Source: Promethearchaeota archaeon
Lineage (GTDB): Archaea > Asgardarchaeota > Lokiarchaeia > Sigyniarchaeales > SOKP01
Length of the DNA stretch: 20,962 bases
Assembly: GCA_011364975.1 (NCBI GenBank)
Contig: RDOE01000055.1
Location: 1 to 20,962, forward strand
Direction of reading: 5' to 3'
This document shows positions 11,016 to 20,805 of this stretch, one piece after another. The notes under the pieces were generated by a model, which was given only the letters and a program-made list of their open reading frames with translations, searched no databases and was not told the origin of the DNA. Position numbers and translations under genes: made by a program. Positions within the stretch are counted from its first letter, which is position 1, and every line of letters begins with the position of its first letter.

Positions 11016-11582
11016 GTGATAAAAATAGCAATTCAATCTGAAGATATTTTAATTCATGCTATTAGTCATAAAATTAGGAGAGAAATCTTGGAATTATTGG
11101 ATAATTCCCCTAAAAGCTTTTCTGAAGTTCTTAATTATTTTGATTTGTCCACAGGCAAGTTAGATTATCATTTAAAGCAAATAAAGGGATTTATTTTTAA
11201 AAATGAAACAAATAATTACGAACTTACATCTTTGGGACAAAAAGCGTTAGAAATATTAAGAATTATTAAAAAAGAAGTGGGATTTGAGGAACAACCCTAT
11301 TTAAAAGAAGCTTTTATTTCCCAAAAAAGTAGTTCATCCTCTATATTTAGCCAAGGAGTTAATCTTGGCATTGGAGGATTAGTTTTTATTACCGCAATAA
11401 CTATATTTTTGCTTATTGTTTTTTTAAATGTTGCGGATGCCCCCTTTTTTATTTGGCCAATAATAATTACTATGTTTTTAGGCGAGTTGTATGCGTTAAT
11501 CTGGCTCATCAGGTTAAGAAAACATGGTCCAGCATTCATAGAACGCCTTAATAAGCATCTTAAGGAAGAAAATTCAAACTGA
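11016..11582 (+). CDS. ArsR-like winged-HTH protein fused to a C-terminal two-TM hairpin
   Basis: ISHKIRREILELL...SFSEVL...STGKLDYHLKQIKGFI...YELTSLG, then two hydrophobic helices; GTG start. Confidence 0.85.
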   Translation: MIKIAIQSEDILIHAISHKIRREILELLDNSPKSFSEVLNYFDLSTGKLDYHLKQIKGFIFKNETNNYELTSLGQKALEILRIIKKEVGFEEQPYLKEAFISQKSSSSSIFSQGVNLGIGGLVFITAITIFLLIVFLNVADAPFFIWPIIITMFLGELYALIWLIRLRKHGPAFIERLNKHLKEENSN

Positions 11583-12684: not shown

Positions 12685-13704
12685 TTATAGATTTAAGATT
12701 TCGATAATTTCCAATCCATCCTCCATATCTGCAACATAAGCAATGTTCCCATCAACCATAACGTCGTAAGCGTGTCCTCCATCGAAGTAGTGACCAGTTT
12801 TAATTGGATTAGATGGATCACTTATATCAATTATATTTAACCCCATTTCATAATCTGCTAAAAATGCATAATTTTCTTGGATGCATGACGCAAAAATTGC
12901 ACCTCCATCATGATGATATCCTACTTGAATTATATGAGATGGATCGGAAATATCAAGAATGTGTAATCCGCCTCCATTCATCGCATGGTTGCAAACATAT
13001 ACATAATCGTCTTTAACAAAAGGATTCCAGTAATCAACATCCATAGGAGCATGATTTCCAACTTGAATCGGATGGTAAGGGTCACTCACATCAACAATTC
13101 TTAAACTACTATACGTAGAAAGATGATCTACTATATAGGCTCTATTATTAAGGATGTAAAGCTGACTACATGCTCCAGAGGTCGCAAATCGTGCTAATTC
13201 TCTAATATCATGATAATCACTAATGTTTAAAATAACTAATCCTCTTGACCAATCAGCTATATAAGCAATTTCCCCTACGATTTGCACATCATAAACAGCA
13301 CCACTGCTTGTAAACTGATCCAATTTAATGGGATTTGAAGGGACACTCACATTAATAACCTCTAATCCAATGTTCGGGTTAGCTAAAAAAGCAGTCTCTC
13401 CCACTACATCTACCTTAATTGGAAATCCTCCATCATAGAAGAACCCTAACTTGGCAGGATGGCGGGGATCACTAATATTAATAATTACTAAACCTCCTGG
13501 ATTCTGTTCTGCTCTATCTACTAAATATGCTATATCCCCTTCAATATCTAGATCGTATGCAAACCCACCAGTATCTAATTGTCCTAATTCGACTGTGTTA
13601 AATGGAAGATATTTCGAGAAAAAGATTAGAGGGAGTATGATAGCGGCACTTGCTATAAAACAGATAGAGACAATTAGCAGTACTTTTTTACGGTTAATTA
13701 GCAA
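12685..13704 (-). CDS. LVIVD-repeat (beta-propeller) surface protein with N-terminal signal/TM anchor
   Basis: About 7 repeats of V.V.G..AYxAD...GL.I.DISDP..P...G; N-terminal RKK plus hydrophobic helix; TTG start. Confidence 0.9.
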   Translation of the reverse strand: MLINRKKVLLIVSICFIASAAIILPLIFFSKYLPFNTVELGQLDTGGFAYDLDIEGDIAYLVDRAEQNPGGLVIINISDPRHPAKLGFFYDGGFPIKVDVVGETAFLANPNIGLEVINVSVPSNPIKLDQFTSSGAVYDVQIVGEIAYIADWSRGLVILNISDYHDIRELARFATSGACSQLYILNNRAYIVDHLSTYSSLRIVDVSDPYHPIQVGNHAPMDVDYWNPFVKDDYVYVCNHAMNGGGLHILDISDPSHIIQVGYHHDGGAIFASCIQENYAFLADYEMGLNIIDISDPSNPIKTGHYFDGGHAYDVMVDGNIAYVADMEDGLEIIEILNL

Positions 13705-13807: not shown

Positions 13808-14437
13808 TTATTTCATTTCATATTTTGTAATTATCATTTTAGTTAAACTCTCAAAAGCATTCTCGAGATTCGCGCCCGTAAGAATATCGCATTCAAAATA
13901 ACCATTTAATTCTTCAGAGGCTACAAAATCTAACCCTTCCTCTTTAGTTACTTGGCGGGTATCATTTAAATCATCACTACTACCCAACAAAATAATGGGA
14001 ACATTATCGGTATTATCCCTTATGATTTGAACCCATCTAGATAGTTTATGTAATGTTTCTGAATCTGAAATTTCAAACATTAATATCGCTCCCAATGCTC
14101 CTCTACAGTAGTAAGGAATCATTTGTCTCCATCGTTCTTCAGATGCTAAATCCCATATCTGCAATTTAATATTAATATCTTCTATTTTTATCTCTTTTAT
14201 CCCAAAGCTTATACCAATTGATAACTTTGTATTAGCTTTAAACCATGAGTTTCCAAACTTCTCTAAATAATCAAACTTACCTAAATTGCTATGCCCCAGT
14301 AATATAACTTTAAATGAAAAATGAGGTTCAAAATATTCTTCCGTCTTTCTTTTTGGTAGGAACGAAGGCTCCTTACTTATGATTGATAAATCCTCATTTA
14401 TTCTTCTTTTACTTCTTTTTCTTTTAAATAATCCCAA
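13808..14437 (-). CDS. Rab-like pseudo-GTPase with N-terminal MG plus polybasic extension
   Basis: Rab-family scaffold (KLQIWD, YYCRGA), but G1 GHSNLGKF, G2 S, G3 DLAS, G4 SSDD and G5 CDIL are all degenerate. TTG start; an in-frame stop lies 8 codons upstream. Confidence 0.85.
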   Translation of the reverse strand: MGLFKRKRSKRRINEDLSIISKEPSFLPKRKTEEYFEPHFSFKVILLGHSNLGKFDYLEKFGNSWFKANTKLSIGISFGIKEIKIEDINIKLQIWDLASEERWRQMIPYYCRGALGAILMFEISDSETLHKLSRWVQIIRDNTDNVPIILLGSSDDLNDTRQVTKEEGLDFVASEELNGYFECDILTGANLENAFESLTKMIITKYEMK

Positions 14438-14547: not shown

Positions 14548-15063
14548 TTATCGTATTCTATCTAACATCAGTTTGGTTAAAATTTTAAAACACTCTTCTA
14601 CATTCTCTCCCGTTTTACTGGAACATTCTATAAAGCCATCTAAACCCATAGATTTCGCAACCCTTTTTCCTTCTTCATAAGAAATTTCTCTAATTACTTC
14701 TAAATCTAATTTACCTCCAATTAAAAGGATCGGCATTTGCTCTCTAGCGCCATTCATAACAGTTAACCAATCGCTGAGGTGCACAAAAGAGGAATCTTCT
14801 GTAATATCATACATTAAAATTCCTCCCTTTGCTCCCGATATATATCGAGGAAAGATAAACCGAAATCGTTCTTCACCGCCAAAATCCCATATCATCAGCT
14901 TTACTCGCGATCCGTCAATTTTTAGATCCTTCGTCTCAAAATCAACTCCTATTGTCATGTGTAAGCCTGGAAGATAAAGTTCAGTTATGAATCTTTTGGC
15001 TAAGGTTGTTTTACCACAACCAGCATCACCAAAGATTACTACTTTGAAAATAGCGTCGTACAT
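14548..15063 (-). CDS. Rab-like small GTPase (Ras superfamily), no prenylation tail
   Basis: G1 GDAGCGKT, G2/RabF1 TIGVDF, G3 WDFGGEERF, G4 GGKLD, G5 CSSK. Confidence 0.95.
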   Translation of the reverse strand: MYDAIFKVVIFGDAGCGKTTLAKRFITELYLPGLHMTIGVDFETKDLKIDGSRVKLMIWDFGGEERFRFIFPRYISGAKGGILMYDITEDSSFVHLSDWLTVMNGAREQMPILLIGGKLDLEVIREISYEEGKRVAKSMGLDGFIECSSKTGENVEECFKILTKLMLDRIR

Positions 15064-15394: not shown

Positions 15395-15922
15395 TTAAAT
15401 CCATGAGCTTCTGTTATTTTTTAACATAATTTGTGCTAATTCTTGAAAAATAACATCTACATTTTGCCCTGTTTTACTTGAACTCTCTAAAAATGCATTT
15501 AATTCATGTTCTTCCATCAATTTTTTTCCTTCCTTAGTGGATACTTCACGATAAGCCTCTAAATCCATTTTGCCTCCAACTAACATAATTGGAAATGATT
15601 CAGAGGATTCCTTAATAACTGCTAACCACTCATCAATATGAAGTGTCGAAGCTAAGTTTGTAATATCATACATAAATATACCCCCATGAGCTCCTTTTAC
15701 ATATCTTGGAAGGAAAAATCTAAATCTCTCCTCTCCGCCAAAATCCCAAATCTGTAATTTCACGCTCTTATTATCTACGGTCAGCACCTTTACTTGTAAG
15801 TCGACACCTATAGTCATTTGAGTATCTGAAATAAATTTATTCGTCATGAATCTTTTTGCTAAGGTGGTTTTACCACAGCCAGCGTCACCGAAGATAACAA
15901 TTTTGAAGATTGCATCAAACAT
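15395..15922 (-). CDS. Rab-like small GTPase, no prenylation tail
   Basis: GDAGCGKT, TIGVDL, KLQIWDFGGEERF, GGKMD, SSSK. Confidence 0.95.
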   Translation of the reverse strand: MFDAIFKIVIFGDAGCGKTTLAKRFMTNKFISDTQMTIGVDLQVKVLTVDNKSVKLQIWDFGGEERFRFFLPRYVKGAHGGIFMYDITNLASTLHIDEWLAVIKESSESFPIMLVGGKMDLEAYREVSTKEGKKLMEEHELNAFLESSSKTGQNVDVIFQELAQIMLKNNRSSWI

Positions 15923-19822: not shown

Positions 19823-20292
19823 GTCTGTTTTTCTTCTGTTCATAATCTTAAAGTTCTTTTAATTCAAATAAGAAGGGTTATAAGAACTTTAACTTAATCC
19901 TAATTTACAATATAAAAACTACAATATCTAGTTTGAATATATAGAAATGAACTTTTCTTTTTTTAGATAAGCAAATCATGTAGCATAAACTAAAGTGTAA
20001 TTTATATTGATAGAATAATTCTTATTAAGCTTAATATGATAGATGATGAGCCACTTACCTAATTTCCTCCCATTAGTAAAAGTTCTGATAAAAATTTTCA
20101 TGCTAATCAAAATAAGGGAATTATCTTCTCTTTTTCTCATTAATATTGCTGGGGATATTACCCAAAGGCAAAAATTATTATAATGAATAAAAGAGACCAA
20201 AAGCCATTACATGCAAGGGTAAAAGGCCTTTTGATTGATAATTTTTTCAAGAATTTCCTTCTAAATTAAAGGAGGAGGTTGTTAGACTTTAA

Positions 20293-20805
20293 TCACGTCC
20301 TATTTAAAATTAATTTTGTAAGAATTTTAAACGCTTTTTCTACATTTTCACCCGTTTTACTTGAACATTCAAGAAATAAATCTAATCCCATCGATTTAGC
20401 AGTTTGGATTCCCTCATCATATGAAACTTTTCTAAATGAATCTAAATCTGCCTTACTTCCTAATAATAAAATAGGGAATTTATATCTGCCTCCATTTACA
20501 ACTGACAACCATTCATTAATGTGAGTGAATGATGATTCATCTGTTACATCATACATTAAAATTCCTCCCTTTGCTCCAGCAATATAATGTGGGAATATGA
20601 ATCGAAATCGTTCCTCCCCAGCAAAATCCCATATTAATAGTTTTATCCTCATTCCGTCAATAGTTAGGCATTTTGTTTCAAAATCAACACCCACGGTCAT
20701 AGTTGTATTTGACACAAATGAATTGGTCATAAAACGCTTTGCTAATGTCGTTTTACCTGAACCCGCATCACCAAATATAACTACTTTAAATGTAGCACTA
20801 TACAT
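20293..20805 (-). CDS. Rab-like small GTPase, close paralogue of 14548..15063
   Basis: GDAGSGKT, TVGVDF, WDFAGEERF, GSKAD, CSSK; 117/170 identical to the 14548..15063 protein by ungapped manual alignment. Confidence 0.95.
   Translation of the reverse strand: MYSATFKVVIFGDAGSGKTTLAKRFMTNSFVSNTTMTVGVDFETKCLTIDGMRIKLLIWDFAGEERFRFIFPHYIAGAKGGILMYDVTDESSFTHINEWLSVVNGGRYKFPILLLGSKADLDSFRKVSYDEGIQTAKSMGLDLFLECSSKTGENVEKAFKILTKLILNRT

Follow-up and report, generated by a model that had tools for sequence, protein, structure and literature searches.

Introduction

Proteins that keep the GTPase fold after losing its nucleotide-binding motifs (the G boxes, G1 to G5) have been described in eukaryotes, where CENP-M and two non-binding pseudo-GTPase domains of p190RhoGAP serve as scaffolds (PMC10211241). 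The protein considered here is a candidate archaeal counterpart. It is a Rab-like protein encoded in a 20,962-nucleotide stretch of DNA of a Promethearchaeota archaeon (contig RDOE01000055.1 of assembly GCA_011364975.1); this whole stretch is called the window below. With CENP-M and p190RhoGAP it has in common the GTPase fold, the loss of the G motifs and, probably, retention as an interaction module for which no catalytic cycle is expected. Unlike them, it is plainly Rab-like (Ras profile, E=1e-33), stands alone as a protein of 209 residues, carries a basic tail and is archaeal.

A second group for comparison is formed by the Rab-like (“RasL”) proteins of Asgard archaea. In PMC10933270 these are reported to have no prenylated C-terminal extension and not to be targeted to membranes in HeLa cells. 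The window protein resembles them (e.g. the Thorarchaeota Rab in Protein Data Bank (PDB) entries 7ezb and 7eze) in its fold, its Rab-type motifs and the absence of a C-terminal prenylation tail. As is typical of the large RasL paralogue sets, its own genome encodes 35 full domains. In contrast to RasL proteins, which bind GDP/GTP and have canonical boxes, the pseudo-GTPase family has none of the five boxes intact and possesses an N-terminal tail. By analogy, the window protein would most resemble the eukaryotic scaffold pseudo-GTPases in function; by descent it is a member of the Asgard RasL expansion.

The tail itself has a possible parallel among Asgard Arf-like proteins, some of which bind membranes via an unlipidated N-terminal amphipathic helix, as stated in PMC11914678 and bioRxiv 10.1101/2024.02.28.582541. 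Since that helix binds membranes, an unlipidated N-terminal targeting element has an Asgard precedent (PMC11914678). The likeness consists in an N-terminal element that would reach membranes without myristoylation, and for the pseudo-GTPase it is proposed only. The Arf-like proteins belong to the Arf clade and bind membranes in a GTP-dependent way by an amphipathic helix, whereas the pseudo-GTPase is Rab-like, its tail is polybasic and disordered, and no dependence on nucleotide is expected. Animal RGK/Rit GTPases also have non-canonical G motifs and reach membranes by unlipidated polybasic-aromatic tails. Here the comparison holds as an analogy only: RGK/Rit proteins retain nucleotide binding and have the tail at the C-terminus, and the tail of the pseudo-GTPase is N-terminal. 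Finally, loss of the P-loop hydroxyl in Ras and Rab mutants weakens Mg2+/GTP binding and favours the exchange-factor-bound state. Such dominant negatives (a mutant of the Ras S17N type is mentioned in PMC11914678) are laboratory point mutants, whereas the change described below is natural, found family-wide and accompanied by the loss of four other boxes.

A full-text literature search found nothing that joins Asgard with pseudoGTPase, and only general pseudoenzyme reviews joining pseudoGTPase with archaea. Among the listed titles and abstracts on Lokiarchae degenerate nucleotide-binding or Asgard polybasic (a preprint supplementary table lay outside this scope), there was no description of the family.

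Loss of the nucleotide-binding residues

The window protein matches the Ras family profile PF00071 (Pfam) over residues 43–202 with 116.7 bits (cut-off 21.6) and TIGR00231 with 56.6 bits (cut-off 42.5). The closest solved structures by sequence are Ypt31, Rab11, Rab4 and Rab8 (E ~1e-30). The G boxes were placed by HMMER alignment to Ypt31/Rab11 and by alignment to the two neighbouring Rab-like paralogues (positions of all features are collected in Table 1). A first-pass annotation of the window had claimed that all five boxes are altered, and both alignments bear out the box positions and the claim. The P-loop, GHSNLGKF, retains both Gly and the Lys, and Phe occupies the position of the Mg2+-binding Ser/Thr. 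The replacement of the G2 Thr by Ser is, as a substitution, a conservative change. Glu is found at the position of the catalytic Gln both in the pseudo-GTPase and in the intact neighbours (DFGGEE); because the neighbours have it too, it is inherited and is no new defect.

The segments IGISF, KLQIW, RWRQMI, YCRGA and LMFEIS, which the annotation had listed as retained Rab motifs, are all present and align with the matching segments of Rab11/Ypt31. Most of them are conserved family-wide, and we take these switch and interswitch segments to be the Rab-family motifs as usually named. The protein ends in TKYEMK, contains no Cys beyond residue 183 and thus has no C-terminal prenylation Cys; a C-terminal Cys is found in none of the family members. 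Because its G boxes are lost, the protein cannot be classed as a working GTPase, and without the C-terminal Cys it is no Rab of the eukaryotic type.

A search of 5.8 billion proteins gave at least 36 relatives of 161–219 residues (~210) with 55–83% identity, and ordinary Ras-like proteins appear there only under 37% identity. Some of the relatives carry the source label “Rab family GTPase” and are assigned to metagenome-assembled genomes of Promethearchaeota, Lokiarchaeota, Thorarchaeota or Hodarchaeota. In a representative library of 1.84 billion proteins the whole family makes up a single 50% cluster.

Family tallies were made on an alignment of 37 rows, the window protein and 36 relatives. 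The position of the P-loop hydroxyl is occupied by Ile in 34 rows, by Phe in 2 and by Val in 1. The P-loop Lys is retained in 27 rows and replaced by Thr, Ser, Asn, His or Glu in the other 10. At the G2 position there is Thr in 20 rows, Ser in 16 and Ile in 1. The G3 Asp is retained in all 37 rows and the G3 Gly in none (Thr 26, Ser 5, Ile 5, Ala 1). At G4, Asn is found in 34 rows, Asp in 22 and Lys in one. The SAK of G5 is absent from every row; its first position holds Asn in 32/37 and its second Ile or Val in 37/37. At the level of the alignment it is thus shown that the residues expected to hold Mg2+, phosphate and guanine are replaced throughout the family by other conserved residues. As the replacement residues are themselves conserved, they match the prediction of a remodelled pocket and not that of drift. 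GTP binding has very probably been lost as a function of the family.

The genome of origin (3.74 Mb, 200 contigs, 99% complete) contains 35 full-length Ras-like domains. Among these the pseudo-GTPase is the only one with five altered boxes, two others being partly altered, and it is also the only Ras-like protein with a basic N-terminal tail.

Selection and the conserved surface

The ratio of non-synonymous to synonymous substitution rates (dN/dS) was calculated by the Nei-Gojobori method for 13 coding sequences: that of the window, five from genome loci and seven from metagenome loci. Redundant loci were counted once: L002 is a shorter copy of L005, L003 of L008 and L004 of L006, and the proteins of L015 and L017 recur in L016 and L018. 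L012 (1663 bases) was left out of this count and of the synteny count, its first 16 residues being missing. The dN/dS is 0.10–0.33 in 73 of 78 pairs, with saturated dS in the remaining 5. This indicates purifying selection and no neutral decay among the relatives, and together with the replacement residues conserved over 37 sequences it agrees with the earlier suggestion of a pseudo-GTPase as opposed to a broken copy. Against the 98%-identical strain (locus L010) there are 10 synonymous and 5 non-synonymous differences (dN/dS 0.113), which falls inside the range of 0.04–0.53 of 12 neighbouring genes compared with L010. Four of the five amino-acid differences lie in the tail.

Selection is distributed unevenly along the protein. 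Over 51 pairs, dN/dS is 0.19 in the domain, 0.44 in residues 16–41 and 0.66 in residues 2–15. The mean column identity peaks at 0.89 in the interswitch (12/21 columns invariant), followed by 0.83 in helix 1 and switch I; the later segments reach 0.72–0.77 and the tail 0.56. Two residues, F78 and W95, do not vary within the family, and Y110 hardly does. They align with the Rab11 Phe, Trp and Tyr, which form the hydrophobic effector-binding triad of Rabs. As judged by these comparisons, the Rab fold and the face predicted to be formed by switch I, interswitch and switch II are shown to be maintained by purifying selection.

Reading frame and start codon

The gene lies in AT-rich DNA (G+C of the window ~30%). 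Its 209 codons begin with TTG, within a total open frame of 216 residues. There is an in-frame stop 7 codons upstream of the TTG and the next canonical start is found inside β3, so that TTG is the sole start that retains the P-loop. The homologous codon is ATG in 12/12 other coding sequences, including that of the 98%-identical strain L010. Moreover, the A at position 14437 of the window’s plus strand is T in 3/3 public metagenome runs (from three studies) that cover it, which gives ATG on the coding strand; a fourth run used does not cover this position. Since L010 and the three covering runs read ATG, the TTG of the window is explained as variation of an ordinary start codon between strains. 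None of the 13 DNA copies has a disrupted frame, which agrees with the earlier description of the window ORF.

The same evidence settles where the protein begins. The first-pass annotation had been open to a true start further downstream that would remove the basic tail; ATG at the same codon in all 12 relatives and in the three runs indicates that the basic tail is a genuine part of the protein. In a side observation, codon 13 (position 14401) encodes Ile in the window and Leu in contigs of three other metagenome runs.

N-terminal tail

In 32 of 36 members the whole tail preceding the Rab-like domain has a length of 41 residues. Residues 1–15 contain on average 7.2 Lys+Arg and 1.3 Asp+Glu (36 relatives), and the net charge of the tail is +5.3. 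Gly2 follows the initiator Met in 31/36 members, and positions 3–4 are hydrophobic or aromatic in most of them, mostly Leu, Phe or Ile. Residues 1–32 are unstructured in both AlphaFold models described below, with the predicted local distance difference test (pLDDT) of the tail <50. A Lys/Arg cluster with adjacent hydrophobic residues on a disordered terminus, i.e. a polybasic motif, is thus found both in the sequence and in the model. In this respect the polybasic N-terminus noted previously in the window protein turned out to be a property of the family.

The consensus of N-myristoylation is Gly2 together with a position 6 that is small or bears a hydroxyl. In the family Gly2 occurs in 31/36, yet most members have Arg or Lys at position 6. 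PF01233, the N-myristoyltransferase profile, has no match in the 99%-complete genome, and as control genomes are blank as well, the sensitivity of this search is not established.

Structure model

An AlphaFold2 model was built from a 79-row alignment. Its mean pLDDT is 75.7, and values of 85–96 are observed in the domain outside residues 50–70. Foldseek against the PDB finds Rab8, Rab11, Rab4, Rab1 and Rab3 with template-modelling (TM) scores of 0.82–0.85 (by target length). Superposition on Rab8/Rab11/Rab4 gives a root-mean-square deviation (rmsd) of 2.9–4.0 Å, i.e. the predicted fold is the six-stranded sheet with five helices known from solved small GTPases. This model replaced a first one, made from the 37 family rows only (pLDDT 62, Foldseek TM 0.5–0.67, rmsd ~8 Å); 7ezb and 7eze were among the Foldseek matches of that first model.

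The lowest rmsd values (2.9–3.1 Å) are obtained with nucleotide-free Rab-exchange-factor complexes (4lhx, 6ixv and 6djl), against 3.6–4.0 Å for most Rabs bound to GTP analogues. Because this preference rests on the least confident region of the model, it is only a hint.

Table 1. Features of the Rab-like pseudo-GTPase gene and of the two neighbouring Rab-like genes (window positions).
Feature	Position	Strand	Basis or remark
Coding sequence, 209-residue Rab-like pseudo-GTPase (stop codon 13808..13810)	13808..14437	-	list of open reading frames (ORFs), Pfam, Rab alignments, relatives
Start codon, TTG in window, ATG in 98%-identical strain and all other relatives	14435..14437	-	
Hydrophobic and polybasic N-terminus, residues 1-15 (MGLFKRKRSKRR...)	14393..14437	-	family composition; disordered in model
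Linker, residues 16-41, length nearly constant	14315..14392	-	family lengths; dN/dS 0.44
Rab-fold domain, residues 42-209	13811..14314	-	Ras E=1e-33; pLDDT 85-96 outside residues 50-70
Degenerate G1/P-loop GHSNLGKF, residues 48-55	14273..14296	-	Rab and family alignments
Helix 1, switch I and interswitch, residues 57-96; most conserved part of the family	14150..14269	-	19/40 columns invariant
G2 position, Ser73 replacing Thr	14219..14221	-	Rab and family alignments
Degenerate G3 DLAS, residues 96-99	14141..14152	-	Rab and family alignments
Degenerate G4 SSDD, residues 153-156	13970..13981	-	Rab and family alignments
Degenerate G5 DIL, residues 184-186	13880..13888	-	Rab and family alignments
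Neighbouring Rab-like paralogue, canonical nucleotide-binding motifs	14548..15063	-	not a conserved neighbour
Second neighbouring Rab-like paralogue, canonical motifs	15395..15922	-	not a conserved neighbour

Neighbouring genes and phylogeny

Two Rab-like paralogues lie upstream of the pseudo-GTPase gene on the same strand, and the gaps between the three tandem genes are 110 and 331 bases. They had been described as intact, and they do have canonical G1–G5, the word “intact” referring to the nucleotide-binding motifs only. The tandem of three Rab-like genes recurs only in L010, where the whole gene order is common with the window at 92–99% protein identity. Gene order was further compared in the eight other distinct loci whose upstream DNA extends to 1.5 kb or more (L005, L006, L008, L011, L013, L015/16, L017/18 and L019). 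In none of the eight is the upstream gene Ras-like, and an orthologue of a window gene is a neighbour in none of them. The arrangement with two intact neighbours is therefore not conserved beyond the 98%-identical L010. The neighbours found elsewhere include a Na/Ca exchanger, a flavin oxidoreductase of the old-yellow-enzyme type, a glyoxalase, an M28 peptidase, a citrate-type transporter and a transporter of the major facilitator superfamily. Genes of the Ras superfamily do occur within ~7 kb in L005, L007, L009 and L013, being only 26–39% identical to those of the window.

A maximum-likelihood tree was calculated for the 35 domains of the genome and 12 family members, sampled by taking one alignment row in three. 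The family forms one clade with support 99/98, a stem of 0.61 and short internal branches. It is placed inside a 91/82 group together with the intact paralogues of the window, and the tree does not resolve a sister relation to the two neighbours.

Some further observations concern the surroundings of the gene. The downstream gene, 12685..13704(-), encodes a 339-residue protein with LVIVD repeats (β-propeller) and a hydrophobic N-terminus; it is conserved beside the pseudo-GTPase only in L010. In one subclade a same-strand gene for a 113-residue winged-helix protein (HTH_20/HxlR/DUF7347) precedes the pseudo-GTPase at a distance of 36–48 bases (L009:417-758, L011:2968-3309, L014:107-448). Its L009 and L011 copies are 92% identical, i.e. 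conserved above the pseudo-GTPase itself, and it has no counterpart in the window: the DUF7347 protein of the window (11016..11582), considered as a shared neighbour, is unrelated to it (E=0.23). A role in defence was rejected, because PADLOC does not recognise the pseudo-GTPase and matches the two neighbours only weakly, to mad8 (E 1e-5 and 2e-4).

Distribution

The gene was found in 6/42 species genomes of its genus in the Genome Taxonomy Database (GTDB), the own genome of the window included, and no match was obtained in the other 36, several of which are 98–100% complete (E<=1e-45). When 301 genomes were drawn evenly from the phylum and the 10 best candidates per genome scored, the same 6 carriers were recovered and none turned up in 69 other genera. 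A family found in only one genus, and in a minority of its genomes, gives no support to the “pre-prenylation” targeting module that the first-pass annotation had seen in this protein.

Other Rab-like proteins with altered boxes

Altered boxes are not restricted to the family. Among 191 G domains (150 best representatives and weaker matches) 75 have at most 3/5 canonical boxes, although the degenerate query profile biases this count. Hydrophobic-basic N-termini similar to that of the window protein occur on the distant degenerate Rab-like proteins P0077, P0117, P0134, P0038, P0039 and P0091; P0056 is another distant degenerate-box protein with a hydrophobic-polybasic N-terminus, and P0088 has long hydrophobic N-terminal stretches and no basic tail. 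Counted over the representative library, 6/45 proteins with a degenerate P-loop begin with a basic tail, versus 2/94 with a canonical one (the latter being P0189 and P0192), which is only a hint, because the sequences are related and the search profile included the tail. P0045–P0048, multi-domain proteins that headed the representative search and were considered as fused forms of the family, are tandem canonical Rab domains with additive scores and are not members.

In the own genome, the domain at C128:23576-24409(+) has altered G2, G3 and G5 and the longest branch of the tree, and that at C79:2385-3149(+) has Gln at the second P-loop Gly and Glu at the G4 Asp. The intact paralogues of the clade (14548..15063, 15395..15922, 20293..20805 and C127:36232-36786) have Glu for the catalytic Gln (DFGGEE/DFAGEE) and GGKxD or GSKxD replacing NKxD. 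With these two changes the “active” members of the clade may hydrolyse GTP in an unusual way. A recoding TGA suspected in the Ras-like match 20290-20793 was rejected, as this match merely overruns the stop of ORF 20293..20805 by one codon. Seven of the 35 Ras-like domains stand behind N-terminal regions of ~160–180 residues, e.g. C43:31512-33074, C43:33197-34765, C39:6441-7904 and C124:25391-26404, and also C22:49304-50347, C119:4510-5550 and C104:384-1370.

Possible function

We consider it moderately probable that the window protein represents a small conserved family of stand-alone Rab-like pseudo-GTPases which act as nucleotide-independent adaptors, held by a basic tail at an anionic surface. 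In this scheme the protein would neither bind nor cycle GTP and would offer one fixed Rab-like surface to a conserved partner. With no GTP cycling and a single fixed surface, it would work as an adaptor and not as a switch. The second, weaker part of the scheme concerns the N-terminal arm, which is taken to be unlipidated. Its 41 disordered residues present Gly2, then two or three hydrophobic residues and the Lys/Arg cluster, and would tether the protein to an anionic surface; the likeliest one is the membrane on its cytoplasmic side. That the arm keeps the protein at such a surface, a membrane in the first place, is proposed tentatively.

Several observations weigh against the adaptor reading. 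GxxxxGK is retained in 27/37 rows, the G3 Asp in 37/37, the G4 Asn in 34/37 and the G2 Thr in 20/37; because these box residues are kept, weak Mg-free binding of phosphate or nucleotide could still take place. The residues of the tail evolve fast (dN/dS 0.66 in residues 2–15), and only its composition is retained, so that binding of nucleic acid or of an acidic protein would fit equally well. The P-loop, helix 1 and switch I (residues 50–70) are the least confident part of the model with pLDDT ~51, and the shape of the proposed binding face is accordingly poorly predicted. No conserved neighbour in the loci examined points to a partner. The gene is dispensable, given that 36 of the 42 genomes in its genus gave no match. 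Finally, every functional assignment made here derives from sequence.

The retained GxxxxGK, G3 Asp and G4 Asn would also be in keeping with a non-canonical nucleotide switch, in which GTP, GDP or another nucleotide is bound free of Mg2+ with a conformational change, and nucleotide binding is retained by some Rab-like proteins whose G4 and G5 boxes are poor. However, all 37 rows have a bulky hydrophobic residue at the Mg-coordinating position of the P-loop and none has the G3 Gly; the P-loop Lys is replaced in 10, the G4 Lys is left in one and the G4 Asp in 22. As a quarter of the family cannot hold a nucleotide, its binding is hardly the selected function, and we regard such a switch as unlikely. 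An adaptor might, on the other hand, be cytosolic, its tail binding nucleic acid, the ribosome or an acidic protein and not a membrane. The tail is Lys/Arg-rich, disordered and conserved in composition only, the window protein has an acidic G domain (net charge -7), and a gene for a winged-helix DNA-binding protein lies 36–48 bases upstream in L009, L011 and L014. Yet positions 3–4 are hydrophobic or aromatic in most members, like those of membrane-inserting basic motifs, in the distant degenerate relative P0088 the basic tail gives way to long hydrophobic stretches at the N-terminus, and the family-mean charge of the domain is only -2.6. A cytosolic adaptor thus seems to us rather unlikely, though less so than the switch.

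The first-pass annotation had proposed a membrane anchor or decoy that acts with the adjacent tail-less Rab-like proteins. The same-strand tandem of the three genes in the window and L010 and their common 91/82-supported group in the tree speak for it. Against it, none of the eight other loci has a Ras-like or orthologous upstream gene, other neighbours standing there instead, the Ras-superfamily genes within ~7 kb in L005, L007, L009 and L013 are only 26–39% identical to those of the window, the clade does not come out as sister of the neighbours, and the three genes are separated by 110 and 331 bases. We therefore consider a partnership with these two proteins very unlikely. Still less can be said for a decaying pseudogene or an annotation artefact, in which the TTG and the altered boxes would mark loss of function. 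The window start is indeed TTG and not ATG, and 36/42 genomes of the genus gave no match, but the frame is intact in 13 DNA copies with dN/dS of 0.10–0.33, the replacement residues are conserved, other strains have ATG, and branch lengths within the family stay below the values of most active paralogues. This explanation appears highly improbable.

A more specific form of the adaptor reading is that the protein is a natural nucleotide-free Rab mimic, tethered to the membrane, which recruits or sequesters an exchange factor or another regulator of the Rab-like network. The protein would then be frozen in the state that exchange factors bind tightest. We consider this version doubtful; one weak hint towards it is the lower rmsd to nucleotide-free exchange-factor complexes noted above. 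If it were true, the N-terminal module, which recurs on other degenerate and a few canonical Rab-like proteins of the library, would represent a general archaeal route for placing Rab-like proteins on membranes without prenylation.

Asgard archaea possess dozens of Rab/Ras-like genes, and the roles of these and their prenylation-free access to membranes bear on the origin of the eukaryotic endomembrane system. The weight of the present family for eukaryogenesis is limited, because it was found in only one genus and in a minority of its genomes. If the adaptor reading is true, the family offers a small, soluble and easily expressed protein with which binders of the Rab-like effector face could be probed, and it would mean that regulatory “dead” paralogues already arise within archaeal GTPase expansions.

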